Source of the DNA: an uncultured Alphaproteobacteria bacterium
GTDB taxonomy: Bacteria; Pseudomonadota; Alphaproteobacteria; MPNO01; UBA830
DNA length: 64,000 bases
Direction: 5' to 3'
Assembly (NCBI GenBank): GCA_913046035.1
Contig: CAJWSW010000007.1
Span: 5,116 to 69,115, forward strand
Position numbers and translations under genes: made by a program. Positions 15,738 through 45,028 of the stretch are shown piece by piece. The notes under the pieces are model-generated. The model saw nothing but the letters and a program-made list of their open reading frames with translations, made no database searches and was not told the DNA's origin. Numbering within the stretch: the stretch's first letter is position 1; each line of letters starts with the position of its first letter.

Positions 15738-15803
15738 ACCCTTGTTTTGTAGTAAAATGCATAGAAACGTATTTATGCCCTTCAAAAAACGAACTTCGTT
15801 AAA

Positions 15804-18949: not shown

Positions 18950-20344
18950 TTAGGCAATCTCTGGTTGCAGTTCGTGCCAACCAGCGGCCCGTTCATATGC
19001 ATGCGCCACCTGCAACGCTCGGGCTTCATCCCAGCGGCGGGCGACGAATTGGGCGCCGATGGGCATACCGCTCTCTTGAAAGCCACAACGCACAGACACG
19101 GCTGGATGATCTGTGAGGTTAAAGGGTACATTAATCATTGGTGCCGCCAAAAATGGAAATGTTTCATCTGAGTCCATTGGAGCGGCGGGCACCAACATAG
19201 CAGGCGCGACTAACACATCACATTTCTGAAAAACATTATCTACTATAACCGCCAATTCATTGCGACGGCGCTGCGCCTGCAGATAATCCGACGATCGGAC
19301 GAAGGCACCCAACATCATCCGATTACGTGAAAGTGGCCCGAACTCACTCCATCGGGTCTTGAGTTTTTCCTCGTGAATAGCATAAGCCTCTGCCGGCAAC
19401 ATTAGGCGTCCAACTGCATGGAAATCCATCAACTCCGGAAGATCAGCAGTAACCACCTGTGCGCCTAAATCCTCCAAAACCACCACGATTGCGTCGAAAG
19501 CAGCCCGGATGTCATCAGGCGTATCATAGTCGTCGTAATAGAAACGTTTCGCGATGCCGACAGTCAGCCCTTCCAGCCGGCCAGTCAAACCTCCAACATA
19601 GTCTGGGACCAACTCATCAGCAGAAAGCTGATCACACGGCTCGTATCCCGCCATGGTCTGCAGCATCAGAGCGCAATCCTCTGCGGTTCGCGCCAACGGG
19701 CCGACGGTATCAAGCGAAAAGGTTAAAGGCACTACCCCTGACGTTGGCACACGCCCGATGGTAGGCTTGATACCCGCAGTGCCGCAGAGCGCCGCGGGTG
19801 TTCGGATAGACCCACCCGCATCGGATCCAACAGCGCCAAGGCAGAACCCCGCCGCGACCGACGCTCCACAACCGGACGAAGAGCCACCAGTTGATTTACT
19901 CGGGTCCCACGGGTTGCATGCTGGTGGAAAAAGAGCATCGTAGGTGGGCCGCCCGCCAAACGCGAATTCGTAAGTATCGACAATACCAAGAATTATCGCA
20001 CCTGCGCCCCGCAATCGCGCAATGACCGTCGCGTCTTCAGCTGCGATATTTCCCTCCAACACCCGAGAATTAGCAGTGCAAGCTTGACCGCTTACCTGCA
20101 CAACATCCTTCACGGCAAGGGGAATACCGTCTAGAACACCACGTGTATTTCCCGCCGCTCGGCGCACATCGGAGGCGGCCGCCGATGACAATGACTCGTC
20201 ACGCAGGACCTTATGAAAAGCATGTATCTCACCATCAAACGCGTCAATCCGACTAAGGCATTGTTGGGTCAGATCAACGGCCGTTAGATCACCTGCAGCC
20301 AAAAGACGGGAAGCATCCGCAATTGTTGGTGGGAAAGACGACAC
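18950..20344 (-). CDS. Amidase-signature family amidase (GatA/AtzE-like)
   Basis: 464 aa with GGSSSGCGASVAAG amidase-signature Ser-cis-Ser-Lys region. Confidence 0.85.
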   Translation of the reverse strand: MSSFPPTIADASRLLAAGDLTAVDLTQQCLSRIDAFDGEIHAFHKVLRDESLSSAAASDVRRAAGNTRGVLDGIPLAVKDVVQVSGQACTANSRVLEGNIAAEDATVIARLRGAGAIILGIVDTYEFAFGGRPTYDALFPPACNPWDPSKSTGGSSSGCGASVAAGFCLGAVGSDAGGSIRTPAALCGTAGIKPTIGRVPTSGVVPLTFSLDTVGPLARTAEDCALMLQTMAGYEPCDQLSADELVPDYVGGLTGRLEGLTVGIAKRFYYDDYDTPDDIRAAFDAIVVVLEDLGAQVVTADLPELMDFHAVGRLMLPAEAYAIHEEKLKTRWSEFGPLSRNRMMLGAFVRSSDYLQAQRRRNELAVIVDNVFQKCDVLVAPAMLVPAAPMDSDETFPFLAAPMINVPFNLTDHPAVSVRCGFQESGMPIGAQFVARRWDEARALQVAHAYERAAGWHELQPEIA

Positions 20345-20547
20345 TATTTCTTTGGCTTTCGTTGATGTGGGGTCGGGGCAAATGAAGGCATTGGCTTAGC
20401 CGTCCAGTCCCGTTCGGGATTGCGAACTCGATCAGCTAAATTGCAAAGGGTTTCATACGCTCTACGCAATTCAGAACGCTCGGCATCGGAAACTGGCACA
20501 CCCGAAGCAACAAGTAAGCCTTCAAAGTCTTTATCCCGATTGTTCAT
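20344..20547 (-). CDS. Small 67 aa protein, AtzG/DUF4089-like (GatC-like partner of an amidase)
   Basis: 1 nt stop/start overlap with the amidase and 4 nt overlap with arfB. Core ...LLVASGVPVSDAERSELRRAYETL... resembles the AtzG helix-hairpin pattern. Confidence 0.45.
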   Translation of the reverse strand: MNNRDKDFEGLLVASGVPVSDAERSELRRAYETLCNLADRVRNPERDWTAKPMPSFAPTPHQRKPKK

Positions 20548-20969
20548 TCATCGTTTCCAATAGGGCGGCCTCGCAACCTCTTAATCCTGCCTCGCCGAAG
20601 TTTCTCATCAGCGCGCCGTTTCCTCGCCGCCTTGCCAGGTTTTGTTGGAACACGATGCTTGGGTCGCATAGACGCCTCTTCAATCATATTAAGGAGCCTT
20701 TCCAACGCGTCGCGACGATTAGCATACTGAGTACGATAGCGGTCAGCCGTAATTACTATTTTACCATCCTTGGTCCGCCTACTTCCTGCATTACGGAGCA
20801 GCCTTTGCCGGACACATTCAGAAAGCGAGGTTGACTTGCAAACATCAAAGTGCAGTTGCACCGCTGTCGCGACCTTATTAACGTTCTGACCACCCGGGCC
20901 GCCAGCACGTATAAACCTCTCTTGGATTTCGTCCTCTCGTATCGATAGTTTGTCATTAATCCGTATCAT
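20544..20969 (-). CDS. arfB: Alternative ribosome-rescue factor (peptidyl-tRNA hydrolase ArfB/YaeJ)
   Basis: GGQ motif (AGGPGGQNVNKV), basic C-terminal tail, about 141 aa from MIRINDKL. Confidence 0.85.
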   Translation of the reverse strand: MIRINDKLSIREDEIQERFIRAGGPGGQNVNKVATAVQLHFDVCKSTSLSECVRQRLLRNAGSRRTKDGKIVITADRYRTQYANRRDALERLLNMIEEASMRPKHRVPTKPGKAARKRRADEKLRRGRIKRLRGRPIGNDE

Positions 20970-21262
20970 TGGCTTATTGTACAACGTCATTTGATTGCGC
21001 GTTACTTGAGATACCAAACCCTATCATTAAAGATCCGAAACTATATCTCATCAACGACGGCATAATACCGCGACCCAAACTGATGCCACATCCCCCAAAC
21101 CAAGAAAACCACCTTCGCAATTAGCAGTAGAGCAAGATTTGACGCAACACGTCGATTTAATACGCTGGAGGAAGTCTCTCTTTGGTATCGACAACTACAT
21201 TAACTAGATACGAGGAGGATACCGAGACAACCTACAAATCGATATTCAATCAGAAATACTTC

Positions 21263-22009
21263 TCAATCTAGCGCCTGCAGAAGCCCTTTATCAATTCTGC
21301 CTGCCAATTTTCGACCCTCCAACGATTTGATATTAGCCGGCGCCTTAGGCCCGCCATCAATGCAGGCATCACAGGCATTGATACTAGTAAATGGCACAGG
21401 AACAGTTTGCATCGCGGCTTCTAGGCGCTTTAGATCCTCGTCATTTTCAGGTTCGAGAGGTGCACTATTTAAAAGCATTTCGGCTGCCTTCGCGTCATCC
21501 CCGCCGGCCTTACGGCGAAGTATATCAAGCCATATAGCCTGGTATTCGGCAGCGCGATGATAATGAGCACAGACACAACATTCTGGGTAATTTAAGAGCC
21601 GCGCTTCCTGCTCAACTGTGACCACAGCGGTCTCACAGATATCAGCCACTTCATCCGCTACTGCTCGGGCACGACAAATGTACCACGCGCGATGCTCAGC
21701 GAACGCGGCGCGGGTATGTTCGAGATACCAATCCGGGAGTTTGGCACCGGCGCCGGCATCGGCACTAGCATCCCAGAAAGGACCCTCGATGATCTGCAGT
21801 TTGGCATCAGACGCGATCTGCAACACTCCTTTAATCCAGTTCTGTTCGTTATAACCGCGGCCAAGCAGCATCACTGGCTTTTCGCCCGCCGCCATCGACA
21901 AAAAGTCCAGCGCTTCCTGTGCTCTGATTTCGGAGTTCTGCTCTGCAATTATTAAACGATTGAGTTTCTTAAGCGTATTCCGAAGACGGGATTTGTTCTG
22001 CAGGGCCAT
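21263..22009 (-). CDS. Hypothetical Cys-rich protein
   Basis: 248 aa, no recognisable family. Cys groups CCVCAHYH and CDACIDGG. Confidence 0.5.
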   Translation of the reverse strand: MALQNKSRLRNTLKKLNRLIIAEQNSEIRAQEALDFLSMAAGEKPVMLLGRGYNEQNWIKGVLQIASDAKLQIIEGPFWDASADAGAGAKLPDWYLEHTRAAFAEHRAWYICRARAVADEVADICETAVVTVEQEARLLNYPECCVCAHYHRAAEYQAIWLDILRRKAGGDDAKAAEMLLNSAPLEPENDEDLKRLEAAMQTVPVPFTSINACDACIDGGPKAPANIKSLEGRKLAGRIDKGLLQALD

Positions 22010-22166
22010 GGCAGAGCTATAACAATGCCATCACTCCCGCGAAAGGAGGAATTTACAGAGGATATCGACACGGCGTCGTGACCCAAAAGTTTTTCAAATG
22101 CGTTACGAATAAAACATTAGCCGCTAGGGGGAACCAGGCTTGAAACACCTGTTGTGAAAATTCGAT

Positions 22167-23693
22167 CTAACCTGCCTCCTTAGACCTGCCTCGAGACAGC
22201 AACACGACAAGGGGCACTGATATTACTGCGCCTATAAAAATCAATTTAAAATCATTCAGGAAACCAATTGCCATCGCCTGACGGGCTATCTCGGCATCAA
22301 GCAACCTCAGGCCATCGACCGTGAAAATGTCCCACTGCGACGGCAGATAAGGTGGCTGCATCACTTCATTGTACGGGTTTGTGCGTTCAGACAGATAAGC
22401 GTGACTGGTCGATTGGGTCCGTGACAGCACGCTAATGACAATTGAGACACCAATGCCGCTTCCATAGTTGCGGAATAGACTGGTAAAGGTGGATGCCTCC
22501 GTCCGGAGATGCTCCGCTAGTGTCCAAAACGAAACTGCGGTAAGCGGCACAAAAATAAGCCCAATCCCGATACCGTTGAAAAATGCCGCAAAAACAAACA
22601 TCCATATACCGACATCAGTAGTGAAAGTTGAGAATAGCCATGCCGAATAAGCAGTGGATGCAAAGCCGATAGCAATCTGTAGGCGCGGGTCCATCCTACC
22701 GCTAAGTTTACCGGCCAGAATGAGCCCAAATAGTGAGCCTAGTCCACGCGGCATCATAACCAACGCCGCAGTCAAGATTGGATAACCCCGCGCGTTCTGC
22801 AGAAACAAAGGCATAATCACATTCATGGAAAGCACCAAAATACCTAACAAAAACATGAAAAATAAGCCCAACATGTAATTGCGATCGGTCAGAATCGCAG
22901 GGGTAATGAATGGGTTTTTTGTCGTTGTGCTATGAGCAACGAAAAGGTAAAGGGCAAGCCCAATTATAACTGCCGTAGCGACAATCAAATCAGAGCCAAA
23001 CCAACCCTCGCCTTCGCCCCGATCCAACATGAACTGCGTTGCCGCTAATGCGATCGCAAGCGCGATAAATCCAAAAATATCGAAGCGTCGTTCGAGATTT
23101 TTTGGCGTCTCTCTGATAAAAAAAATCGCTCCCAAAATACCAAGCAAAGAAAATGGCATCGAAACATAAAACACCCAGCGCCAACTGTATTCGTCGGTTA
23201 GCCAGCCTCCAATAACAGGACCCATCACCGGCGCAAACATCACCCCCATACCCCAAATAGACATCGCCTGTGCGTGGCGCTCTCTGGGATAGGAATCCAG
23301 CATAAGGGCTTGGCTTATTGGCACCACAGGTGCAGAAAACATACCCTGCAAGCCACGGTAGATCATTATCTCTTCAATGGAGGTGGCATTCCCTGAGAGC
23401 ACAGAGCATATAGCAAAACCAATCAGAGAGAAGATATAGAGCTTCTTTCGACCAAACCGCCCAGCTAACCAGCCAGTAGCCGACATGGTGATTGCTTGCA
23501 TCATAAAATAGGTGGTCATTACCCAGGAAACCTGGTCCTGGCTAGCACTCAGTCCTCCTTGCATGTGCGGTAATGCAATAGTCGCAATAGTCATATCGAT
23601 GATCACGACAGTGGTCGCCATCATTACCGAAGCCGTGACCATATTTCGCTTGAACGCCTTGGAACGTTCGTCAGGTGGGAGGTCGGCAATCAT
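22167..23693 (-). CDS. emrB: MFS transporter, DHA2 (EmrB/QacA) family, 14 TMS
   Basis: 508 aa with typical DHA2 motifs, downstream of the HlyD-family gene. Confidence 0.8.
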   Translation of the reverse strand: MIADLPPDERSKAFKRNMVTASVMMATTVVIIDMTIATIALPHMQGGLSASQDQVSWVMTTYFMMQAITMSATGWLAGRFGRKKLYIFSLIGFAICSVLSGNATSIEEIMIYRGLQGMFSAPVVPISQALMLDSYPRERHAQAMSIWGMGVMFAPVMGPVIGGWLTDEYSWRWVFYVSMPFSLLGILGAIFFIRETPKNLERRFDIFGFIALAIALAATQFMLDRGEGEGWFGSDLIVATAVIIGLALYLFVAHSTTTKNPFITPAILTDRNYMLGLFFMFLLGILVLSMNVIMPLFLQNARGYPILTAALVMMPRGLGSLFGLILAGKLSGRMDPRLQIAIGFASTAYSAWLFSTFTTDVGIWMFVFAAFFNGIGIGLIFVPLTAVSFWTLAEHLRTEASTFTSLFRNYGSGIGVSIVISVLSRTQSTSHAYLSERTNPYNEVMQPPYLPSQWDIFTVDGLRLLDAEIARQAMAIGFLNDFKLIFIGAVISVPLVVLLSRGRSKEAG

Positions 23694-23811
23694 CTCAACA
23701 CGACACTAATTCTCGGACACACCGACGTTCACAGGCTGTTTCCTATTGAGGCCATGAACATAAACGGTCGGCTGTAGCCAACTGAACCCGAGATGAAAGC
23801 GGCCACGAAGA

Positions 23812-24879
23812 CTAGTTATCCGCCATTTCAGCAACTGCGGCACCAATGGCTTGAAAAAGCGACCGATCACGCTCGGTATCGATGGAAACGGATACGGTCA
23901 TACCGGCACGCAGGGGTAAATCACTTTGGTTGTCTTCGATTTCAAGACGGACTGGCACCCTTTGGACGACTTTTACCCAGTTTCCACTTGCATTCTGGGG
24001 GGGCAGGACAGACAGTTCTGCGCCTGTAGATGGGCTGATTGACGATACTTGGGCTTTCCATTCATGATTTGGATAAGCATCGATTATCACCTGCGCAGTC
24101 TGTCCTGTGCGCAAATAGGTGAGCTGCGTCTCTTTAAGGTTGGCCTCAATCCATGTTTCTCCAGCTTGGACGATAGGTATGACAGCGTTTCCTTTCTTAA
24201 CATATTCGCCCACCTGCAAAGAAACCTTTCCCACGATGCCGCCTGCAGGTGCTGATATTCGCGTTCGACGTAAATTCAGCTCCGCCTGCTTACGTCGCGC
24301 CAACACCTCCAAAAACATCGGATGTTTTTCAGCAGGCATATCTAATTGGCCGCCAAGCTTAGCTCGGACCTGCTGGATTTTCTGACCAATAGTGCGGGTT
24401 GACTGCTGCGCCTGTGCAAGCTTGCGTTCAGCAGCATCATAATTAGCGCGTGATGCAACGCCTCGTTCGATGAGTTTTTTCTGCCGCTGGAACACTCGCC
24501 TATAATATCCCGCTTCCTGTTGGGCATCCTTCAATTCGGCTTCCGCGGTGCGATATTCGGCGCGCAACGCATTCAAATTGTTGCGGATCATGGCAAGCTC
24601 CGCCTCTGCCTTGGCAATTTCTATCCGATGTTCCTCGGCATCGAGTTCGAATAACAAGTCATCTTTCTCGACAACGTCATTTTCTCGGACAAGAACTCTC
24701 ACGGCGCGACCGTTGATATCAGAGCTAATCGCGAGGTGATGCGATTTGATATATGCATTTTCGGTGGATATGTAGCGGGTATTCTTAACCCAGTAATGAC
24801 CACCGGAAACGACTGCTACTGCGGGCACAACGAATAGCAGCGTAAAACGAGCAAGCCCACGTCGGCTTGTAAACCACAT
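23812..24879 (-). CDS. emrA: HlyD-family membrane fusion protein
   Basis: 355 aa with an N-terminal TM anchor and a long coiled-coil. Confidence 0.8.
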   Translation of the reverse strand: MWFTSRRGLARFTLLFVVPAVAVVSGGHYWVKNTRYISTENAYIKSHHLAISSDINGRAVRVLVRENDVVEKDDLLFELDAEEHRIEIAKAEAELAMIRNNLNALRAEYRTAEAELKDAQQEAGYYRRVFQRQKKLIERGVASRANYDAAERKLAQAQQSTRTIGQKIQQVRAKLGGQLDMPAEKHPMFLEVLARRKQAELNLRRTRISAPAGGIVGKVSLQVGEYVKKGNAVIPIVQAGETWIEANLKETQLTYLRTGQTAQVIIDAYPNHEWKAQVSSISPSTGAELSVLPPQNASGNWVKVVQRVPVRLEIEDNQSDLPLRAGMTVSVSIDTERDRSLFQAIGAAVAEMADN

Positions 24880-24881
24880 AT

Positions 24882-25373
24882 TTATTCCTCCACCGAACGT
24901 GTTTGTTCAAGCATCACTGAAAGATTACTTTTGATATTATTGAGGGTCCGATGCAAACGCTTCGCGTCGTCTTGGCTTACTCCCGCGAAAATGGCCATGA
25001 CAACCTTCTCTGCCTCACTCTGCATTTCCTCCAGCACCGGCCGCGCCGCCGGCGTTAAACAGACAATCTTTGAACGTGCGTCGTCTAGGTCCGGCTGCCG
25101 TTTGACCCAACCTTTTGCTTCCAAGCGTTCGATGAGCTTACCGAGCGTTGGTTTTTCAATTTCAAGCGCAATTGCAAGTTCAGTCTGCGTGCAGCTTTTC
25201 ATGCGGTTTAGTCTCGTCATGACGCGCCACTGCGCCCGTGTTAGTCCCAATGGCTCGACCCGGCGATCGTAAACAGTGCGGATCATACGCGACACATCTC
25301 CAATCAGGTATCCTATAGGATCGATCTGCGGCGGTCGGTATCCTGTTTGATTTTTCCGGTCTACACCATTCAC
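24882..25373 (-). CDS. MarR-family transcriptional regulator
   Basis: 163 aa winged-HTH, first gene of a marR-emrA-emrB-like operon. Confidence 0.85.
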   Translation of the reverse strand: MNGVDRKNQTGYRPPQIDPIGYLIGDVSRMIRTVYDRRVEPLGLTRAQWRVMTRLNRMKSCTQTELAIALEIEKPTLGKLIERLEAKGWVKRQPDLDDARSKIVCLTPAARPVLEEMQSEAEKVVMAIFAGVSQDDAKRLHRTLNNIKSNLSVMLEQTRSVEE

Positions 25374-25396
25374 AAAGCTTTTCCCGAATAACGTGT

Positions 25397-25434
25397 GTAT
25401 AGTAAGTTAACTTACTATAAGTTAGCTTACTATA
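25397..25434. promoter_or_regulatory. Perfect 22 bp palindrome plus adjacent half-site repeat; candidate MarR operator
   Basis: TATAGTAAGTTAACTTACTATA (25397..25418) is its own reverse complement. It is followed by AGTTAGCTTACTATA, a near-copy of the half-site. It sits 24 bp upstream of the marR start. Confidence 0.6.
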
Positions 25435-25763
25435 CAATCCATATAATTCAATGAGCGCCACTCAAAATTGCGCGCATTTCATAACTTTAGTTATGACGGT
25501 GTTTACCGTTCGAATTCGCAAACTAACAAAGCCCCTAGGAAAACGGGATCAAATCTATATTGAACTCAAATGGCGATAACACCGCGCGGTCTTAAGCAAA
25601 AGCGATCAATCTCCAAAAAATATCTGGGAAATCTCATCACACACTTCAATCTTAAAACCGTGCCATTTAGGATAAAGCGCTAAAATTTACACTAAGTGTA
25701 CGCATACTTATATAAATCCCCTATAATTAAGATAAACTGATAGAGGTAAAATCGGATAAAGCG

Positions 25764-26639
25764 ATGGAAATCATATCGCTATCAAGCGCAATTGGGGCCG
25801 AAATTCGAGGGGTTGACCTTTCAAAGGGCCTGGATACGGCGCAGGCTTCGGCTATAGAGAAGGCGTGGTACGACCATATAGTCCTTCTGTTTCGTAACCA
25901 GGATCTCAGCATAGAGGCACACAAAGCATTCGCGTCCTGTTTCGGCGAAATTGCTCGACACGAGCGGCCAAAGGCAATCCGCAATGAAGCGGCAGAGTTA
26001 GGGCCAAACGTTATGCTAGTCTCCAACATCCGAGAAAACGGCAAACCAATTGGTTCACTCCCCGACGGCGAGATGATGTTCCACTCCGATACGCCCTATC
26101 GAGAACATCCAGATAAAGCGACCACCTTGTACGCCATGGAAATCCCGTCTCATGGCGGTAACACCAAATTTGCAAACTGCTATTTAGCCGCTGAGACCTT
26201 ACCGGATGATGTGAAGGCAACACTTTCGGGCCGCAAAGCCATTCAAGTTTTCGAGTATGGCGCCGTTACGAAAGAAGGAAAATTTGACCGCGAAAATGGC
26301 CGCTGGTGGGCCCAACCAGTCTTCCGAAAACATCCGGTAACGGGCAAGACCTCATTATATGTCAGCGAGTTAATGACCGAAGAAGTCGAGGGCTTGGGGG
26401 AGGAAGAAGGACGTGCTCTGCTAGATTTCCTGTTCAAACACCAGGCACAGGAAAAATTCCAATACGAACATGTTTGGCTTCCAGGTGATTTAGTAATGTG
26501 GGACAACCGCTGCAGCATCCACGCCCGCACAGATTTCCCGGAAACCGAGCGACGCAAACTACGCCGAATGACCATTAAAGATGACCACCCGGTGCTCATG
26601 GGTGAACCACCGGGGCTGAGAACGGTAGCTGCCGAATGA
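25764..26639 (+). CDS. TauD/TfdA-family Fe(II)/2-oxoglutarate dioxygenase (paralog 1)
   Basis: 291 aa with FHSDTPY (HxD) ... HARTDF motifs. Confidence 0.85.
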   Translation: MEIISLSSAIGAEIRGVDLSKGLDTAQASAIEKAWYDHIVLLFRNQDLSIEAHKAFASCFGEIARHERPKAIRNEAAELGPNVMLVSNIRENGKPIGSLPDGEMMFHSDTPYREHPDKATTLYAMEIPSHGGNTKFANCYLAAETLPDDVKATLSGRKAIQVFEYGAVTKEGKFDRENGRWWAQPVFRKHPVTGKTSLYVSELMTEEVEGLGEEEGRALLDFLFKHQAQEKFQYEHVWLPGDLVMWDNRCSIHARTDFPETERRKLRRMTIKDDHPVLMGEPPGLRTVAAE

Positions 26640-27496
26640 CAAAAACCACGGCAGGATTGGATATACAGCCCCTCTCTGAAGTAATTGGCGCCGAAGTCAA
26701 CGGCATCGACCTGTCGGAACCGCTAGACAGTGATACCGTTGCCGCCATTACCGACGCGTGGCATGAACACATTGTACTACTGTTTCGAGACCAGGAAATT
26801 GACGCCGACCAGCAAATCGCTTTCGCGGAAAATTTTGGTGATGTCGGTGTGAGGTCTCGACCCGCCGAGCGCCGTCCCGAGGGCGCGGATTACAATGCCT
26901 CAATAATGCTCGTCTCTAACGTTAAGAAGAATGGCGAATATATTGGGTCATTGCCGGACGGAGAAATGTGGTTTCACCATGACATGTGCTACGACAAAGC
27001 TCCACACAAAGGTACATTTCTTTACGCGATGGAACTACCTTCTAAAGGCGGAAATACTCTATTCGCAAACATGTATTCGGCTTACGAAAAGCTGTCGGAA
27101 AATACAAAAGAACGCATTCTAGGAAAGCGTGCACTGCAGATTTACGATTTTGCAACGCGCGAGACAGTAGATATCTCAGACGATATTTCAAAATACAAAC
27201 ACGAAGTCCAGCCGGTTACTATCACCCATCCTGTCACAGGACGCCGAGCGCTTTACGTAAATCCGCTAATTACTGCCCGAATAGAAGATATGCCCGATAG
27301 CGACAGCCGTACGATGCTAGACGAACTCTTTGCTTTTGCGAATGACAAATCAATTGCGTACGAGCACGTCTGGAAAAAGGGCGATTTAATGATGTGGGAC
27401 AACTGGTGTTCGTGCCACGCGCGTACCGACTTTTCAGCCAGTGAGAGGAGGATGCTCCGCCGCTGTACGGTAAAGGGACAGCAGCTGTACGAATAG
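26636..27496 (+). CDS. TauD/TfdA-family Fe(II)/2-oxoglutarate dioxygenase (paralog 2)
   Basis: 286 aa with FHHDMCY ... HARTDF. ATGA-coupled to paralog 1. Confidence 0.85.
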   Translation: MTKTTAGLDIQPLSEVIGAEVNGIDLSEPLDSDTVAAITDAWHEHIVLLFRDQEIDADQQIAFAENFGDVGVRSRPAERRPEGADYNASIMLVSNVKKNGEYIGSLPDGEMWFHHDMCYDKAPHKGTFLYAMELPSKGGNTLFANMYSAYEKLSENTKERILGKRALQIYDFATRETVDISDDISKYKHEVQPVTITHPVTGRRALYVNPLITARIEDMPDSDSRTMLDELFAFANDKSIAYEHVWKKGDLMMWDNWCSCHARTDFSASERRMLRRCTVKGQQLYE

Positions 27497-27507
27497 GGAG
27501 ACACGAA

Positions 27508-28353
27508 TTGGCATTAAAGATAAATAAGCTATCAGAACATATTGGCGCCGAAATCCGAGAAATTGACCTTAACCTAGATCAAAGCCCAGAAACTATTGCC
27601 CTGATCAACCAAGCTTGGTTCGATAACATAATACTCTTGTTCCGTGGCCAGCACTTAGACGCAGAGCGACAGCTTGTCGTCACTAGCTGGTTTGGTGAAC
27701 CAGGGAAAGTCGCCCGGCCTAAGAAGTTTCACCCAAAAGGGTACGACAAACTCCCGGAGGGCATCATGCTAATTTCCAATATACGAGAAAACGGCGAACC
27801 CATCGGAGCATTGCCTGATGGCGAGATGATGTTTCACCATGACATGATGCATGCCGAACTACCACACAAGGCGACGATGCTAAACGCAGTTGAGATCCCC
27901 TCTCACGGCGGCAATACCCTTTTTGCAAGCGGATATGCCGCTTACGATACTCTGCCAGATGAACTTCGCCTGCCACTAGAAGGGCGTAAAGCATTTCATC
28001 ATTATAATTACGGCTCCGTTCAGAAGGGGGATAACAAAGGAACACCTGCGTTTTCTGAATCTGTTCATCCGGTATTCCGCACCCACGATAATACCGGCAA
28101 AAAAGCAATTTATGTCAACCGCCTAATGACTGAAGGCGTGGTCGACATGGATCAAGACCAAGCAACAAAGCTATTGAATGCAGTCTTTGATCACGCCGAA
28201 GAAGCAAGGTTTGTATACGAGCACGAATGGCGAGTAGGCGATCTTCTTTTGTGGGACAATAGGTGTTCTATGCACGCCCGAACCGACTTTCCGGAAACAG
28301 AACGCCGGCTGCTTTTGCGCACTACAGTGCTAGGCGACGCGAAACCGTTTTAG
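27508..28353 (+). CDS. TauD/TfdA-family Fe(II)/2-oxoglutarate dioxygenase (paralog 3)
   Basis: 281 aa with FHHDMMH ... HARTDF. TTG start preceded by AGGGAGA. Confidence 0.8.
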   Translation: MALKINKLSEHIGAEIREIDLNLDQSPETIALINQAWFDNIILLFRGQHLDAERQLVVTSWFGEPGKVARPKKFHPKGYDKLPEGIMLISNIRENGEPIGALPDGEMMFHHDMMHAELPHKATMLNAVEIPSHGGNTLFASGYAAYDTLPDELRLPLEGRKAFHHYNYGSVQKGDNKGTPAFSESVHPVFRTHDNTGKKAIYVNRLMTEGVVDMDQDQATKLLNAVFDHAEEARFVYEHEWRVGDLLLWDNRCSMHARTDFPETERRLLLRTTVLGDAKPF

Positions 28354-28367
28354 GAAGTACACACGAA

Positions 28368-29177
28368 ATGCTCAAGATTCTTACAGAAGATCAAGTTACT
28401 GCGTGGCACTCTGATGGATGCATATTCCCAGTCCGCGCAGTAGACCCCGAAAAGGCGCAGGACAATCTTAAGCGGTATCTAGAGCTTGAACAAAAGATCG
28501 GCGAAGAGCCGCAGAACCGTTTCAAGATAAAAGCACATTTACCATTCCCCTGGATGTGGGACATTATTCGCAACAAAAATATCCTCGACGCTGTGGAAGA
28601 CATAATTGGTCCCGACATCCTCTGTTGGGGTTCATCGTTTTTCACCAAAAATGCTCATGACAAACGCTTTGTCTCTTGGCACCAAGATTCTACCTATTAT
28701 GGACTGTCGGAGCGAGCAACCCTCAGCGTCTGGTACGCGTTTAGCCCATCGAATATAGAATCGGGATGTATGCGTTTTATTCCGGGAACCCACAATCAAG
28801 GTCTCTACGAACATGATGAAACTGGCAATTCTGACAACTTACTTATGAAGGGCCAAACTATTAACGGCGTCGATGAAGAGAAAGCCGTTGACGTTGTTCT
28901 CGATCCCGGCGAATTCTCCATCCACCACGAAGCGGTGGTGCATGGATCCAATCCCAACAACGCCAACCACCCGCGCATCGGTATATCAATTCACTATATC
29001 GCGCCACATGTGCATCAAGTGTTATTGAAAAATGCAACCGCAACCCTCGTCCGCGGCGCAGATCGCCATGGTCACTGGGCAGAAGACCCGGAACCAAAGG
29101 AAGATTTCGATCCTGTTTGCCTAAAAGCGCTTGACGCGACCTATGGTGAATATCTGACTGGAGCCGGAAAGTATTGA
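28368..29177 (+). CDS. Phytanoyl-CoA dioxygenase (PhyH)-family Fe(II)/2OG oxygenase (paralog 1)
   Basis: WHQDSTYYG ... HHEAVVHGS motifs. Start moved to the ATG at 28368 to avoid overlapping the upstream gene. Confidence 0.8.
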   Translation: MLKILTEDQVTAWHSDGCIFPVRAVDPEKAQDNLKRYLELEQKIGEEPQNRFKIKAHLPFPWMWDIIRNKNILDAVEDIIGPDILCWGSSFFTKNAHDKRFVSWHQDSTYYGLSERATLSVWYAFSPSNIESGCMRFIPGTHNQGLYEHDETGNSDNLLMKGQTINGVDEEKAVDVVLDPGEFSIHHEAVVHGSNPNNANHPRIGISIHYIAPHVHQVLLKNATATLVRGADRHGHWAEDPEPKEDFDPVCLKALDATYGEYLTGAGKY

Positions 29178-29293
29178 CGTTGCCCTATAACAGAACCGCG
29201 CCGTTTGAAACACCGATTAGAGTAACCCCTAGTGGGTAAAATCTCCCAGCGCTTAACTAGTCCCGCGAACGTATCAACCCCACAAATTCAGCG

Positions 29294-30109
29294 ATGTTAA
29301 AATTCTTGAGCGACGAACAGCTTTCCAACTGGAAACGCGATGGAGCAGTCTGGCCCATCGACCTGCTAACGACTGCTGAGGTTAACGATTTGGCACAACG
29401 GCTTGAAATTCTCGAGGCCTCCATTGGGGTCGAGGCGCAATCTAAATTTCGCATCAAAGCCCACCTACCTTTTCCGTGGCTTTGGGACTTAATTCGAAAT
29501 CCGCGGCTCGCCGATATCATTGAAGACCTTTTGGGCCCTAATATCGTGTGTTGGGGTTCATCTTTTTTTACCAAGAAACCCCATGACCCGCGTTTCGTTT
29601 CCTGGCACCAGGACTCAACCTATTATGGGCTAGAACCACCAGAGTCGATAACAGCCTGGGTCGCATTCACCCCAGCCAACGCGTTGTCTGGTTGTATGAG
29701 AATCATTCCAGGTAGTTACAAAGGCGACGCAATTCTACCGCACGAAGAAACCTTCGGGAAAAACAACTTATTGTCACGTGGCCAAACGATACTCGGCATC
29801 GACGAAAGTGCAGCGGTCGAAATGCCGCTGCAACCCGGTCAAATATCCGTCCACCACAACAAAACGATACACTCTTCTAGACCCAACAAAGCCGATTGGC
29901 CGCGCGTCGGGTTCGCAATCCATTTTACAACTACAGACGTCCATCAAACTCAGTTTGCCAACCCTCTGGCCATCCATATCCGAGGCGACGATCCGGAGGG
30001 TAATTGGATCGAAGATCCGTACCCAGAATATGAATTATCACCGGCGAGTGTGAAGGCTTGCGAAGATTATTGTAAAAGATACCGCTCGGCGATAGCGGCG
30101 CGAATCTAG
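29294..30109 (+). CDS. PhyH-family Fe(II)/2OG oxygenase (paralog 2)
   Basis: 271 aa, clearly paralogous to the previous gene (KAHLPFPW[ML]WD[IL]IRN, WHQDSTYYG). Confidence 0.8.
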   Translation: MLKFLSDEQLSNWKRDGAVWPIDLLTTAEVNDLAQRLEILEASIGVEAQSKFRIKAHLPFPWLWDLIRNPRLADIIEDLLGPNIVCWGSSFFTKKPHDPRFVSWHQDSTYYGLEPPESITAWVAFTPANALSGCMRIIPGSYKGDAILPHEETFGKNNLLSRGQTILGIDESAAVEMPLQPGQISVHHNKTIHSSRPNKADWPRVGFAIHFTTTDVHQTQFANPLAIHIRGDDPEGNWIEDPYPEYELSPASVKACEDYCKRYRSAIAARI

Positions 30110-30411
30110 AAGCAATGGTCCTGTAAATTGCAGGACGCAAAATCAAACTTTGGTTTTTAAACGTAACGGCCTTTTACTACAGCACACGCGGGACCTGTCG
30201 CTTCATTGCCTTAAAATACAAAACAAGCTAATCACTTCGCACCGCTGTTAATAGCGCAACACCATAGTAGTCTGGCACGCTAATTCTATAACTCTTCATG
30301 AACGTCGAGACATTTTTTTATTTAAACTGTGCCGGAGACCCGGCTGCCCGCGGCATCGTGTTCAAGAAGTTTTTCCTCAACACCCAGCACCGCATGCTTT
30401 AGCCTGGAGCC

Positions 30412-31239
30412 ATGGCACTACCTGAACTAAAAACCGTGGATATTGGCGGTACGCCAATTTCGATCCGGGACACCGCTCCAACTAACGATGATAACAAGCC
30501 AGTAATAGTACTACTACACGGGTTGGCAGGATCGTCCCAGACTTGGGCGTTCCAGTTCCGCACCCTATCTGAGTACTTTCGGATCATCGCATGGGATATG
30601 CCAGGTTACGGAGTGTCGGGAGGGTTCGTGAGGGAGAACCCAACAGTTGAACACTATGCCCATGCTTTATCCGCGATGCTCGATTCGATCGGTGCCTTTA
30701 GGTCTCATATTGTTGGTCAATCGGTAGCGGCCCTTATTGGAGCGGCGTATGCAGCTGAATATCCCGACCAAACACTGTCGTATACATTCTGCCAAGGATT
30801 AACAGGCCTTGCTGGCTTACCGGAGGATGAACGCAGTAATCAACGGAAACAACGCCTGGAAACTTTGCGTAAAATGGGCCCCGAGAGCTTTGCTGAGGAA
30901 AGGGGTCGCTCGTTACTTGGACCTCAAGTGATGCCAATGGTTGCAGAACTTGCTTTAACAATTATGAAACGCGCGCCACTGAAGGCAATGTGCCAGGCTG
31001 TAGAGATGATGGCTCAGACTGACTTTTATGAGATTGCGCCGCGCCTTGTTTGCCCCTCGTTGGTAATCGTCGGTTCTGAAGACCCAGCCTCGCCGCCAGA
31101 GATGGGATATAATGCCCGCAAAGCGTTGGGGGATGGACCACAGGAAACCATAGAGGGCGCTGGCCACTACGCATGCATGGAAAACCCCGCCGCATTCAAC
31201 GCGGCACTGAGAGATTTTGTAATATCGACAAATCTCTAA
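30412..31239 (+). CDS. Alpha/beta-fold hydrolase
   Basis: 275 aa with HGLAGS, GQSVAA nucleophile elbow and a C-terminal GAGHY. Confidence 0.8.
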   Translation: MALPELKTVDIGGTPISIRDTAPTNDDNKPVIVLLHGLAGSSQTWAFQFRTLSEYFRIIAWDMPGYGVSGGFVRENPTVEHYAHALSAMLDSIGAFRSHIVGQSVAALIGAAYAAEYPDQTLSYTFCQGLTGLAGLPEDERSNQRKQRLETLRKMGPESFAEERGRSLLGPQVMPMVAELALTIMKRAPLKAMCQAVEMMAQTDFYEIAPRLVCPSLVIVGSEDPASPPEMGYNARKALGDGPQETIEGAGHYACMENPAAFNAALRDFVISTNL

Positions 31240-31321
31240 GTATGCACTTATCCGATAGCGTCTACCCGTTCGCCCCACTATCGATACTCAAATCCGGCCG
31301 CCACGCAGATATGCAATATCT

Positions 31322-32932
31322 TTGATTATACGAGAAAACCCATACAATAACTTTATGCCAGTTCACTCCGTTCCATCTGCCCCTGACAAACGTAGATACC
31401 GGTCGATTGCCGCACTCCTTAAAAGCCATGCCGACAAACATGGTGAGAAACCATTTATCGTGTCGGTCGACGAGGGCGGACGAAACATCACGTTTAACGA
31501 GCTTTGGAGACTATCAAACCGGATGTCTCGCTTTCTTGCCGACCGAAATATCATACGCGGTGGGCGAGTTGCAGTGTTGTCGGACAACCGGCTGGAGCTG
31601 CCTGTTCTTTATTTCTCGCTACTGCGCTACGGGGCGGCATTTTGTACCATCAACGTCGAGGTAAATGGCGCAAACCTGCGAGAAATGCTGGCGCGCATTA
31701 ACCCAGAGCTAATTCTTTATCACCAAGATCTGGAGCTTGGTCTACCGCAAGATTCTAGCCTCAACCTTATTCCATTCGGGATGTGCGACACCGCCGGTGA
31801 TAACGCGTCTGACAGAGGTCTCTTCGAAACATTGAAAGGATACAGCGATGACGACGATGCACCCGATGCCGGTGCCGAACCGGACGACCTCTGCGTATTG
31901 AGTTTTACCTCAGGCACATCAGCTGCACCCAAAGGCGTAATGCACCGTTTCGGCAATTATTTCTGGATCGCGGATCAGACTATCGACATGTGGAAGCTGA
32001 CCGGAAAAGACAGAATACTAGAATTTCGCTCACTGAGCTGGGCATCCTCACACATGCTATGCCTAATGCCAGCGCTGCGCACGGGTGCAACAATTCTACT
32101 CGCCAATAGATTTTCCCGGTCACAGTTCTTCAACTGGTTGCGTAATTACACACCTACGATGGTGATCGGTGTGCCGGCCGTGATCAACATGCTTTTAGAG
32201 AGCGAACCAGACCCAAGAGACGTTGCAGCGACCAAAAAACTGCGCTTTATGTCTTCATCAACTGCACCTTTAATGGTTGAACAACACAAACAATTCGAAA
32301 GCACATACGGAGTTGAACTTGTTCAACTATACGGCATGAGCGAGGGTGGTATAGTTGCTAGTAACCATGTCGGAGAGCGACGCATCGGTACTGTGGGCCG
32401 TTCGGGGCTCTATCAGAACCTGCAGATAGTTGGACTGAACGGCAAGCGTCTCAACACAGGGGAAATCGGCGAGATAGAAATTGGGGGCGCACAGCCAGCC
32501 AGCGGATATCTTCTCGCTGACGGAACAATCGAAAAGATCGAACGCCTAAAAACCGGCGACCTCGGGTATCTAGACGACGACGGATTTCTAGTAATAACCG
32601 GCCGCGCCAAGGACATCATCATTCGGGGTGGCGTAAACATCGCACCGCTCGAAATTGATCAATGCTTATGCGCCCATCCAGATATTCGCGAGGCAGCAAC
32701 CATTGGCGTACCGGATAAGGTATACGGCGAAAAGCCGGTAAGCTTTGCATCACTAAGGCCTAAAGCCAAAGCATCTGAGGCAGATATATTGGCCCATTGC
32801 GCCAATTTGCTCGCTAATTTCAAGATGCCCTCGGAATTAATACTTATAGACGATGTACCTAAGAACAACCGCGGTAAGGTTGACCGAAAGTCGTTGGCAG
32901 AATTGTGGGAAAAAAATTATTCCAATGATTGA
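31322..32932 (+). CDS. AMP-dependent synthetase/ligase (acyl-CoA synthetase, class I adenylate-forming)
   Basis: TSGTSAAPKGV P-loop-like AMP-binding motif, YGMSEGG, a GDLGYLDDDGF hinge and a C-terminal K. Start is either TTG at 31322 or ATG at 31355. Confidence 0.8.
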   Translation: MIIRENPYNNFMPVHSVPSAPDKRRYRSIAALLKSHADKHGEKPFIVSVDEGGRNITFNELWRLSNRMSRFLADRNIIRGGRVAVLSDNRLELPVLYFSLLRYGAAFCTINVEVNGANLREMLARINPELILYHQDLELGLPQDSSLNLIPFGMCDTAGDNASDRGLFETLKGYSDDDDAPDAGAEPDDLCVLSFTSGTSAAPKGVMHRFGNYFWIADQTIDMWKLTGKDRILEFRSLSWASSHMLCLMPALRTGATILLANRFSRSQFFNWLRNYTPTMVIGVPAVINMLLESEPDPRDVAATKKLRFMSSSTAPLMVEQHKQFESTYGVELVQLYGMSEGGIVASNHVGERRIGTVGRSGLYQNLQIVGLNGKRLNTGEIGEIEIGGAQPASGYLLADGTIEKIERLKTGDLGYLDDDGFLVITGRAKDIIIRGGVNIAPLEIDQCLCAHPDIREAATIGVPDKVYGEKPVSFASLRPKAKASEADILAHCANLLANFKMPSELILIDDVPKNNRGKVDRKSLAELWEKNYSND

Positions 32933-33360
32933 ATCAAAACACTAATTCTGGACATCGATATATAGGTCGGTCAAATCGAAATCCCGATAACTATTTATGG
33001 CCCTGTTTTGACCACTGTTATATACGGGTTAATTAAACCAGGCATCGGTGAAGCACTTTTAAAGCAGATCGAAAACATCAAGATCATAGAAACCCAGGCA
33101 CGTGGGACTCAAAACACAGAAAATCTCGTTAATCAGAAGCCTAACAACGCATCAGAAATACGTGTGGATTAATGCGGTCTCCGCTTTGTGTAATATTTTT
33201 GGGTGCAGCTATTTCCAAAACGGTAGAAGCGATTATTGCTTCCCAAAGATATACACGCAACGATGTTGGATCTATTAACAGTTCAGCTAAAACCCCTTTC
33301 GATGCCGAAACTCACAGTCACGCCAATTTGAACTCCTGCCAGTCGTCGCGGCTAAATCGG

Positions 33361-35001
33361 TCAGACACTAGCAGCAGGCAAAGGAGACCGGCCGCGGATC
33401 AAATCTGATACTTTTTCTGCTATCATTATCACGGGTGCATTTGTAGCGCCGCCTATCAAATCTGGCATCACCGAAGCATCCACTACGCGCAATCCGTCGA
33501 CACCACGCACTCTTAATTCCGCATCAACTACAGCGAATGGGTCGTCTGTTACTCCCATTTTGCAGGTCCCTACAGGATGATGCACTGTCCCCATGGTTGC
33601 ACGGATATGTGTATCGATTTCTGCATCTGATGTCTTATCCGCTCCAGGAAGAATTTCATCGCCGCCAAATTCTTTTATCTGTGGCGATGCGACTAATTCT
33701 CGCGCCATTCGTAAACCGCGGCGCATCGTTTCCCATTCCTCTGGTGTTTCAAAAAAATTTTGATGAATCTGGATCGGATCTCTGGGGTCAGCAGACGTTA
33801 AAGCGACGTACCCACGGCTGGTTGGGCGCATTGGCATGATCCTTACGGAAAACGAATCGGAAAATGCTTTTTTAAAAGGCGGCAGCCAGGGAGATGCCGT
33901 CGTGGTCGCACCCATCCAGAACAGCATCTGTATATCAGGGACCGTGAGATTTGGGGATGTTTTGAGGAAGGCGGTAATACCGAATGGAAGATCTGCGGCA
34001 AAGCCACCCTTACCAAAATAGGCGCGGATTAGCGACGGCACTACCCGGTCAAATCGCATATTACGTTGAAATGGCCCGCCGTCATTGCGACGAAAAATAA
34101 AGGCGGAAGACGTGTGGTCGGCAAGATTTTGTCCAACTCCGGGCAAAGGAGCAACTACATTGATCCCATGCTCCCTCAAATGCTCAGGATCACCGATCCC
34201 AGAGAGCATTAGCAAATGCGGTGAATTTATGGAACCACCTGAAAGTATCACTTCTCGTGCAACGCGCGCTGAGAGAGAACGACCACCACGTCTATAGTTA
34301 ATGCCCGTTACTCGACGGCCTTCGAAATTAATTCGGCGAACCAGGGCTCTGGTTTGAACAGTCAGGTTAGGGCGCTTCAGCGCCGAGCGGAGATAAGCAG
34401 CGGCGGCGCTCCACCGTCGGCCATTTTTTAATGTCGCCTGCATACGAGCAAAACCATCTGGGTTTTCCCCGTTGTAGTCTTCCGTGAACGGATATTGCGC
34501 ATCGCTCGCAGCTTCTAGAAAAGCCTCACACAATGGATCCTCAAATGTCGTCTTTCGGACTGTAAGCGGCCCACCTGCGCCACGCCAATTATCAGCGCCA
34601 CCCTCCCAATCTTCAGAACGACGGAAGTAGGGCAACACCTCAGCATAAGACCACCCGGATAGCCCGGACATAGCCCAACGATCATAGTCTGTTGGATGTC
34701 CATGATAATATGCCATCGCATTGATCGACGATGATCCACCAATCACTTTGCCACGTGCGCATTCAATGCGTCGGTTGTCCATAGTCGATGATGGTTCGGA
34801 AAAATACATCCAGTCGTGTAGGCGTTTTTGAAGGATACGCCCCCATCCAAGAGGGATGTGTATCCACGGATCCCGGTCCCAACCACCGGCCTCAAGGAGT
34901 AAAACGTGTACATTTGGGTCTTCGGTTAGACGCCCTGCCAAGGTGCATCCCGCCGACCCGGCTCCTACGATAATGTAGTCATAGAAACCCTGTGCGCTCA
35001 T
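33361..35001 (-). CDS. GMC-family FAD oxidoreductase (choline/alcohol dehydrogenase-like)
   Basis: N-terminal DYIIVGAGSAGCTLAGRL Rossmann motif and GMC signature blocks. Confidence 0.85.
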   Translation of the reverse strand: MSAQGFYDYIIVGAGSAGCTLAGRLTEDPNVHVLLLEAGGWDRDPWIHIPLGWGRILQKRLHDWMYFSEPSSTMDNRRIECARGKVIGGSSSINAMAYYHGHPTDYDRWAMSGLSGWSYAEVLPYFRRSEDWEGGADNWRGAGGPLTVRKTTFEDPLCEAFLEAASDAQYPFTEDYNGENPDGFARMQATLKNGRRWSAAAAYLRSALKRPNLTVQTRALVRRINFEGRRVTGINYRRGGRSLSARVAREVILSGGSINSPHLLMLSGIGDPEHLREHGINVVAPLPGVGQNLADHTSSAFIFRRNDGGPFQRNMRFDRVVPSLIRAYFGKGGFAADLPFGITAFLKTSPNLTVPDIQMLFWMGATTTASPWLPPFKKAFSDSFSVRIMPMRPTSRGYVALTSADPRDPIQIHQNFFETPEEWETMRRGLRMARELVASPQIKEFGGDEILPGADKTSDAEIDTHIRATMGTVHHPVGTCKMGVTDDPFAVVDAELRVRGVDGLRVVDASVMPDLIGGATNAPVIMIAEKVSDLIRGRSPLPAASV

Positions 35002-39577: not shown

Positions 39578-39600
39578 TCCTGGATCAGAATACAACCTTT

Positions 39601-44914: not shown

Positions 44915-45028
44915 CCAGACACCCTTTCCAAGTTTGCATCTTGATCCCGCGGCGGCATGCGGGCAAGAGTACAACATACAAACACATTGATAGAATTAAA
45001 CCTAAAACGGGCTTAGGGGTAGAAAACT

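Follow-up and report, generated by a model that had tools for sequence, protein, structure and literature searches.

A conserved cassette of diverged TauD- and PhyH-family oxygenases in uncultured marine Alphaproteobacteria, possibly for the catabolism of small carboxylated compounds

Five genes for Fe(II)/2-oxoglutarate (2OG) oxygenases of two different families lie one after another in a 64,000-nucleotide (nt) stretch of DNA (the window; contig CAJWSW010000007.1) from an uncultured alphaproteobacterium, and they raise the question of whether such an array is a functional unit or a local accumulation of paralogues and, if it is a unit, what it acts upon. Listing and translation of the open reading frames (ORFs) of the window at 25764-30109 (forward strand) gave three genes of the TauD/TfdA family (TauD_A, TauD_B and TauD_C) and two of the PhyH family (PhyH_A and PhyH_B), closely packed (Table 1). 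A preliminary description of this sequence had reported the five same-strand genes and the translational coupling of the first two; all of the ORFs and their families were confirmed, and the first two overlap as ATGA. The TauD proteins match PF02668 with E values of 2e-63 (TauD_A), 1.5e-66 (TauD_B) and 2e-59 (TauD_C), at 202-225 bits against a gathering cut-off of 27, and the PhyH pair match PF05721 with E values of 4e-26 and 3e-26 (93 bits against a cut-off of 22). The motifs singled out in that description, HxD, HARTDF and WHQDSTYYG, are all present in the encoded proteins, and the TauD copies are, as it stated, diverged from one another, with pairwise identities of 44-49 %, as are PhyH_A and PhyH_B at 47 %. 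The longest ORF for PhyH_A begins at a GTG at 28263 and overlaps TauD_C; we prefer the ATG at 28368, because it is used by the gene calls in six other assemblies and matches the starts of PhyH_B and the homologues (the N-termini read MLKILTEDQ in PhyH_A and MLKFLSDEQ in PhyH_B).

Table 1. Positions in the window of the oxygenase cassette, its neighbours and other features discussed in the text
Feature	Position	Strand	Size	Description	Occurrence
UbiD decarboxylase	2292-3773	+			
Xanthine-dehydrogenase-family Mo-binding subunit	3899-6220	-			
Mo/FeS/NrfD-type trio	12058-16751	+	973, 253 and 315 aa	Mo-bisPGD subunit, 4Fe-4S subunit and DmsC/NrfD-type membrane subunit	
Orphan Cys-rich protein	21263-22009	-	248 aa	Conserved cassette partner; four invariant Cys (C144, C145, C213, C216)	
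MFS transporter	22167-23693	-		EmrB-like efflux pump; PF07690, E 1.4e-55	Upstream of cassette in 7/17 loci
EmrA-type periplasmic adaptor	23812-24879	-		TIGR00998 EmrA/EmrK, E 5e-68, below cut-off	8/17 loci
MarR-family regulator	24882-25373	-		PF01047, E 1.3e-16; divergent from oxygenase operon	5/17 loci
Double palindrome, operator-like	25396-25436			Adjacent 15-nt units TAAGTTAACTTACTA and TAAGTTAGCTTACTA, 23 nt upstream of marR start	
TauD_A	25764-26639	+	291 aa	TauD/TfdA-family Fe(II)/2OG oxygenase; lineage-specific addition to cassette	
TauD_B	26636-27496	+	286 aa	Core position 1; start overlaps TauD_A stop as ATGA	
TauD_C	27508-28353	+	281 aa	Core position 2; TTG start, GGGAGA Shine-Dalgarno, 11-nt gap after TauD_B	
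PhyH_A	28368-29177	+	269 aa	Core position 3; PhyH superfamily, HxD triad; ThoJ/SyrB2-like fold; 14-nt gap after TauD_C	
PhyH_B	29294-30109	+	271 aa	Core position 4; 116-nt gap after PhyH_A	
Alpha/beta hydrolase, PcaD-like	30412-31239	+		Enol-lactonase or esterase type; PF00561, E 1.4e-21; TIGR02427 PcaD, 113 bits against cut-off 256	
AMP-forming acyl-CoA ligase	31322-32932	+		PF00501, PF13193; loosely associated	4/17 cassette loci
EamA transporters, four in tandem	37743-41369	+			
EamA transporter, fifth	42364-43236	-			
UbiD decarboxylase	43292-44977	-			
TauD_D	47201-48088	+		Distant fourth TauD paralogue, outside cassette; PF02668, E 4e-61, 208 bits; separate clade	
TauD_D with overlapping 258-aa ORF	47201-48861	+			
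Xanthine-dehydrogenase-family Mo-binding subunit	53824-56169	-			
Xanthine-dehydrogenase-family Mo-binding subunit	57476-59851	-			

The array proved to be a conserved operon and not a local pile-up of paralogues. One genome per GTDB species was scanned with a PhyH alignment, which yielded 595 relatives, and the best 80 loci, all from metagenome-assembled genomes (MAGs), were kept; these best 80 came from marine Alphaproteobacteria, Rhodospirillaceae, Defluviicoccus, Binatia and Thermodesulfobacteriota. The ORFs of all loci (numbered with an L prefix) were classified against six window proteins, namely the five of the cassette and the more distant TauD_D, and trees were built for both families. 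In these trees, TauD_A, TauD_B, TauD_C, PhyH_A and PhyH_B each form a separate orthologous clade across genomes. The order TauD_B-TauD_C-PhyH_A-PhyH_B is repeated in L009, L011, L015, L016, L019 and L094, with intergenic gaps of only 1-23 nt within the core in L009, L011 and L094; in L010 the TauD pair and the PhyH pair are inverted and 5 kb apart. TauD_A stands in front of the core in the window, L012, L014, L017 and L072, and variant arrangements also occur: B-C-PhyH_A (L020, L021), B-C-PhyH_B (L052), A-B-C-PhyH_B (L072), B-C-C-PhyH_A (L035) and TauD-hydrolase-PhyH (L093). Members of the TauD_A clade also exist apart from PhyH genes; one Rhodospirillaceae MAG (L007), for instance, carries a triplet of them. 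The ancient core is TauD_B-TauD_C-PhyH_A-PhyH_B, and TauD_A was recruited later in the lineage of the window. Because gene order is conserved and each position is held by an orthologous clade, we regard the cassette as a functional unit. The five genes had previously been taken as the unit, and the tight operon bears this out; what had been overlooked is the 2+2 core, to which TauD_A is a late addition, and a conserved orphan partner described below. A recent tandem duplication is ruled out by the clade structure together with the 44-49 % identity. No relevant description of such a cassette or operon was found in the literature searched for TauD+PhyH clusters in marine bacteria, in line with the earlier statement that the array is not a described operon. 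The superfamilies themselves are well known; what is new is a 2+2(+1) cassette that is conserved and mixes two families, the orphan protein that accompanies it, and the restriction to uncultured marine and sponge-associated lineages.

In the assembly collection, an identical TauD_A protein is recorded in 54 indexed blocks; six places were examined, and each proved to be a marine metagenome assembly or MAG with the same five-gene array and flanks (Tara Oceans samples, GCA_002692905.1 and GCA_036161655.1 are among them). Of the species representatives, 'Alphaproteobacteria bacterium UBA7314' is nearest (PhyH_A 85 % identical), and MarineAlpha11_Bin1 is a relative; the array belongs to an uncultured marine alphaproteobacterium of the UBA7314/MarineAlpha11-like group. 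Comparison with a population variant (L005) gave ratios of non-synonymous to synonymous substitution rates (dN/dS) of 0.00 for TauD_A, 0.16 for TauD_B, 0.07 for TauD_C, 0.06 for PhyH_A and 0.11 for PhyH_B; against UBA7314, dS is saturated and dN is 0.07-0.18. All five oxygenase genes are kept under purifying selection. The recurrence of the same array in independent assemblies, the retention of the core order in other genomes and the dN/dS values of 0-0.16 together argue that the array is more than a chance association. Pseudogenization is ruled out by the dN/dS values. In one contig (L001; ENA ERZ28548090) the TauD_C, PhyH_A, PhyH_B, ligase, GMC oxidoreductase and major facilitator superfamily (MFS) genes are each broken into 2-3 ORFs in DNA that is nearly identical, and these split genes look like frameshift errors of a long-read, pilon-polished assembly rather than pseudogenes.

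To what extent do the residues of the TauD-type enzymes point to a substrate? The reference for the alignment was an E. coli TauD sequence that was checked against known residue numbers only. In its numbering, no member of clade A (8 sequences), B (13) or C (18) departs from the H-x-D...H triad, T126, R266 or R270, and the equivalents of the Fe ligands H99, D101 and H255 and of the 2OG-binding T126 and R266 are invariant in TauD_D also. The residues that contact taurine are replaced in clades A-C (H70 by R, Y73 by E/A, N95 by E, S158 by G/A, F159 by T/S/A and F206 by M/I); the Arg in place of H70 sits where TfdA presumably has its carboxylate-binding Lys71. The TauD equivalog NF007104 is the top NCBIfam match of all three copies, yet the scores of 166, 166 and 149 bits (TauD_A, TauD_B and TauD_C; 146 for TauD_D) fall far below its cut-off of 313. 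Taurine itself, one of the compounds first proposed for testing, is an unlikely substrate because of these scores and the replacement of H70, Y73, N95 and S158. PtlD is the second match (135-163 bits against a cut-off of 550), and the BBOX, TmpA and TMLH models give 19-33 bits against cut-offs of 268-415. Indeed, none of the five oxygenases reaches the cut-off of any characterised-enzyme model among the NCBIfam equivalogs, all scores being far below, and none clusters tightly with a characterised enzyme.

Among solved structures, the TauD copies score 120-150 bits with RdpA, 112-124 with E. coli TauD and 80-82 with AtsK, the best matches being aryloxyalkanoate dioxygenases (E 1.7e-33 for TauD_A and 7.6e-43 for TauD_B), which are distant and differ by an insertion. 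RdpA (AAD-1), SdpA and TfdA share with the window proteins the TauD/TfdA fold and family and the C-terminal motif WDNRC..H..R..R, and they act on anionic substrates; RdpA and SdpA are also a precedent for paired paralogues. However, the window proteins carry an 8-residue insertion (..IGSLPDGEM..) ahead of HxD that is absent in RdpA, their host is a marine oligotroph and not a herbicide degrader, there are no downstream tfd-type chlorophenol genes, and the operon is shared with PhyH enzymes. The likeness to E. coli TauD and AtsK extends to the family, the Fe and 2OG ligands and the anion-binding Arg R270, but the taurine-binding residues are replaced, there is no tauABC/ssu context and AtsK is the weakest solved relative. 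In pentalenolactone biosynthesis, the TauD-family PtlD and the PhyH-family PtlH set a precedent for the two families in one pathway, on an alicyclic carboxylic acid/lactone; here, in contrast, scores are far under the cut-off, the PtlH match is marginal (19-21 bits) and the context looks catabolic, without a terpene synthase. The sixth family member that had been noted 17 kb downstream, TauD_D, is present, but it is only 30-33 % identical to the other three and does not belong to the cassette. A 258-aa ORF without a Pfam or NCBIfam family begins in an ATGA overlap with its stop codon, a gene for an NMT1/SsuA-like binding protein lies divergently upstream, and its orthologues in three genomes (L050, L059 and L069) are 2-5 kb from a PhyH paralogue.

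In the PhyH-type enzymes, H105, D107, H192 and R203 are invariant in 26 homologues, with H192 assigned as the distal Fe ligand by analogy with SyrB2. An AlphaFold2 model of PhyH_A (pLDDT 92.8) gave ThoJ as the top Foldseek match (TM 0.82, 32 % identity), followed by SyrB2 and CytC3. The E values for ThoJ are 1.4e-40 (PhyH_A) and 5.4e-34 (PhyH_B), and the match to human PHYH is weak (4e-10 and 3e-12, respectively). The identity of ThoJ (PDB 6ZYL/6ZYK) as thioholgamide His beta-hydroxylase is taken solely from the title of the Foldseek entry, and no relevant description of these PDB codes was found in the literature searched. Although ThoJ, SyrB2 and CytC3 are the nearest structures to PhyH_A and PhyH_B, genes for ribosomally synthesized and post-translationally modified peptides (RiPPs) or non-ribosomal peptide synthetases (NRPSs) do not lie nearby, and no RiPP-maturation family of a ThoJ-type context was found among the Pfam-scanned window ORFs or the called genes of related loci. 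Fe/2OG halogenases carry HxA or HxG, whereas hydroxylases carry HxD. The PhyH pair, which score 87 bits against a cut-off of 226 for the halogenase model TIGR01762, keep the Asp in the motif WHQD, and the presence of HxD indicates that both are hydroxylases and not halogenases. The halogenase identity given to the pair in the Joint Genome Institute annotation is ruled out by this motif (H105-Q-D107). Judged by these comparisons, no characterised enzyme is near enough for a substrate to be transferred to any of the five oxygenases. Single PhyH_A-like genes of 58-61 % identity are also found without TauD in Binatia and Thermodesulfobacteriota MAGs (L022-L034 and L053), in a different conserved neighbourhood that, from a reading of the sequences without a family scan, encodes a luciferase-like oxidoreductase, a flavin-dependent (FAD) monooxygenase, a short-chain dehydrogenase/reductase and a nucleoside diphosphate (NDP)-forming acyl-CoA synthetase.

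The cassette does not travel alone. The orphan Cys-rich protein, encoded upstream and divergently, matches no Pfam or NCBIfam family and no fold; all of the 12 loci in which it occurs, L093 (38 % identity) among them, have TauD genes at a distance of about 8 kb or less. It has 111 homologues among 5.8e9 proteins, none of them named, and a profile search of 1.84e9 representatives gave 326; its invariant Cys residues lie in the motifs EARLL-YP-CCV--H and C--C, and distant members of the family have an extra C-terminal SEC-C motif. In L092 (1-8732), the orphan gene is 7 kb away from the TauD/MarR genes; a transposase-like gene (DUF772), part of a DNA methylase gene and an MPTase-PolyVal gene in between suggest that a mobile element was inserted into the locus.

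Other neighbours were identified from gene tables and from a clustering of the ORFs that surround 17 cassette loci and 83 PhyH loci. The PcaD-like hydrolase adjoins a PhyH gene in 12 loci, some without TauD. A DHDPS-family aldolase (top NCBIfam match HpaI-like, below cut-off) and a bicupin of about 370 aa (weak matches to gentisate/5-aminosalicylate dioxygenase) recur near the cassette in other genomes, as do UbiD, Amidohydro_2 and TctC or SBF organic-anion transporters. The window is itself rich in oxidoreductases, with an HpaB-like protein, a GMC oxidoreductase, a glutathione S-transferase (GST), two UbiD proteins, three Mo subunits of the xanthine dehydrogenase family and four luciferase-like monooxygenases, besides five EamA transporters; taken as a whole, the region is an island of oxidative catabolism rich in paralogues.

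Our current proposal, which we hold to be a serious possibility though somewhat short of probable, is that the cassette may be a catabolic operon of five separately active, diverged oxygenases acting on one class of small anionic compounds, most likely carboxylated aromatic or alicyclic ones. The nature of the substrate and the catabolic direction are suggested by the anion-binding Arg pair, the RdpA-, TfdA- and PtlD-like affinities and the neighbours of aromatic-acid type (MarR, EmrAB, lactonase-like hydrolase, aldolase, bicupin, UbiD and HpaB). Since both members of each pair keep all ligands, a heteromer of a catalytic and a scaffold subunit is unlikely, and a separate substrate or step for each enzyme is probable. 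The TauD-type enzymes would hydroxylate a carbon beside a heteroatom, leading to cleavage of an ether or ester, or would oxidize an unactivated C-H bond; the PhyH-type enzymes would put on further hydroxyl groups, the PcaD-like hydrolase could then open an ester or lactone, and the MarR/EmrAB unit would sense and export the toxic acid, with the orphan protein as a putative obligate partner. Several points weigh against this proposal. Every match to a characterised enzyme is far below the family cut-off; sulfonate or sulfate should suit the Arg pair no less well than carboxylate; and the conserved Glu at the TauD N95 position could, to judge from the alignment, bind ammonium. In addition, an unconfirmed SoeABC-like candidate lies 9 kb upstream, the adjacent GMC gene passes the NCBIfam cut-off for the choline-dehydrogenase subfamily (626 against 605 bits), the neighbours outside the core differ between genomes, and all carriers are uncultured.

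Sulfonated and quaternary-ammonium compounds had been the first candidates, and both deserve to be weighed. TauD/AtsK-like cleavage of organosulfonates or sulfate esters, in which several sulfonated marine metabolites would serve as carbon sources and give up sulfite or sulfate, would accord with TauD as the top NCBIfam match, with the retained anion-binding R270 and the Arg at the H70 position, and with a window that contains a TRAP transporter, an NtaA/DmoA-family monooxygenase and TauD_D beside its SsuA/NMT1-like binding protein. It would also accord with the Mo/FeS/NrfD-type trio upstream, which is cytoplasmic in type (its Mo-bisPGD subunit has no twin-arginine (Tat) signal) and whose architecture and subunit sizes we take to resemble those of the cytoplasmic sulfite dehydrogenase SoeABC. 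The trio, however, gave no score at a family cut-off and reached no named model, none of the models matched being a sulfite dehydrogenase; the TauD scores are about half of the equivalog cut-off; the taurine contacts Y73, N95, S158, F159 and F206 are replaced; RdpA outscores TauD, with AtsK lowest; and the genes called beside the cassette in L009, L010, L011 and L093 include neither an exporter nor a dehydrogenase for sulfite. We therefore think sulfonate cleavage unlikely. Successive hydroxylations or N-demethylations of a zwitterionic nitrogen compound (betaine, carnitine or an amino-acid-like osmolyte) by the paralogues seem more doubtful again. In favour of such a role, clades A, B and C all keep the Glu at the amine-contacting N95 position, BBOX and TmpA are matched weakly, EctD, GriE and proline hydroxylases are relatives of the PhyH proteins, the neighbouring GMC gene passes the choline-dehydrogenase cut-off, and an amidase lies nearby. 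Yet the BBOX, TmpA and TMLH scores are far below their cut-offs, the GMC gene is found with the cassette in close relatives alone (cluster c10, 3 loci), neither the Pfam-annotated window genes nor the called genes beside the cassette elsewhere include a transporter for betaine or choline, and the conserved neighbours are of aromatic-acid type. Both alternatives rank below carboxylated substrates because, in the other genomes examined, the genes called around the cassette include none for sulfite handling or betaine transport.

A branched-chain acyl-CoA had also been suggested on the basis of the downstream ligase, which in such a scheme of alpha-oxidation or hydroxylation would activate the acid, with PhyH hydroxylating the CoA ester and the hydrolase serving as thioesterase. 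Membership of the PhyH family agrees with this, as does the presence of the ligase here and in 3 other loci; the TauD_A-clade triplet of L007 lies near an AMP-ligase and a thiamine pyrophosphate (TPP) enzyme of 2-hydroxyacyl-CoA-lyase size, and PhyH paralogues of other genomes have flanking genes that read, from sequence and without a family scan, as crotonase, acyl-CoA-dehydrogenase-like and NDP-forming CoA-synthetase genes. But the ligase is missing from most cassette loci, carboxylated aromatic or alicyclic compounds are what the recurrent neighbours point to instead, ThoJ and SyrB2 are far closer than the weakly matching human PHYH, Pfam scans of the window ORFs found no TPP-dependent lyase, and the three TauD enzymes would be left without a role, so that we consider the scheme improbable. 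Least credible of all, in our estimation, is that these are tailoring enzymes of a secondary-metabolite cluster in which MarR and efflux provide self-resistance or export. The nearest characterised relatives do include ThoJ, SyrB2, CytC3, PtlD and PtlH, and an efflux pump, MarR regulator and AMP-ligase are adjacent; nevertheless, neither the Pfam-scanned window ORFs nor the genes called in related loci include a polyketide synthase, NRPS, terpene-cyclase or RiPP-maturation gene, the flanking genes are catabolic and differ between genomes, and the intergenic regions of 390 nt and 302 nt, searched for precursors of RiPP type, wholly contain only short ORFs (<=42 aa), none tested for conservation. 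An Rfam scan of 20000-34000 found no riboswitch or other RNA family. Finally, a refinement of the proposed catabolism of carboxylated compounds is that TauD_B/TauD_C and PhyH_A/PhyH_B are stereoisomer-specific pairs, giving two steps for each of two stereoisomers, as with RdpA and SdpA on R- and S-dichlorprop. The conserved 2+2 architecture, in which both members of each pair appear fully competent, and the enantiospecificity of RdpA, the closest solved relative, speak for such pairing, whereas the 2+1 or 3+1 variants in L020, L021, L052, L072 and L017 speak against it and four sequential steps fit the same pattern; we consider it unlikely. The sequential steps on one substrate that had first been suggested, parallel substrates and stereoisomer-specific pairs cannot be separated in silico.

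It is tempting to speculate on a wider role. As a long shot, the 2+2 cassette, the orphan protein and the lactonase-like hydrolase might constitute an unrecognised pathway by which widespread uncultured marine Alphaproteobacteria, and some sponge-associated Defluviicoccus, oxidize persistent carboxylated dissolved organic matter (DOM), such as aryl-ether acids and carboxyl-rich alicyclic molecules, with the pairs serving opposite stereoisomers and the orphan acting as a metal-binding regulator or accessory factor of new fold. The automatic labels attached to such genes ('taurine dioxygenase', 'halogenase' and 'phytanoyl-CoA dioxygenase') are very likely wrong here, and as labels of this kind enter inferences on the marine sulfur cycle and lipid oxidation, caution is warranted with 'tauD', 'phyH' and 'halogenase' in marine MAGs. 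The cassette offers a compact target for enzyme discovery, with four to five conserved, selected enzymes from abundant uncultured ocean heterotrophs, and identification of the substrate would give a defined set of reactions for the poorly known catabolism of marine DOM; the orphan partner, with no recognisable fold, is a second small and tractable target.

With regard to regulation, the double palindrome upstream of marR (3 matches against 0.11 expected) is probably the MarR operator. It was found in assemblies of this one species alone and so says nothing on co-regulation elsewhere. A scan of 25200-33100 for promoters and terminators gave counts no higher than in shuffled sequence. Beyond the cassette, the three xanthine-dehydrogenase-family subunits are 33-56 % identical. 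The EamA proteins (drug/metabolite transporter family), flanked by MarR, GST and UbiD genes, are 28-45 % mutually identical and form a second diverged paralogue array in the window.

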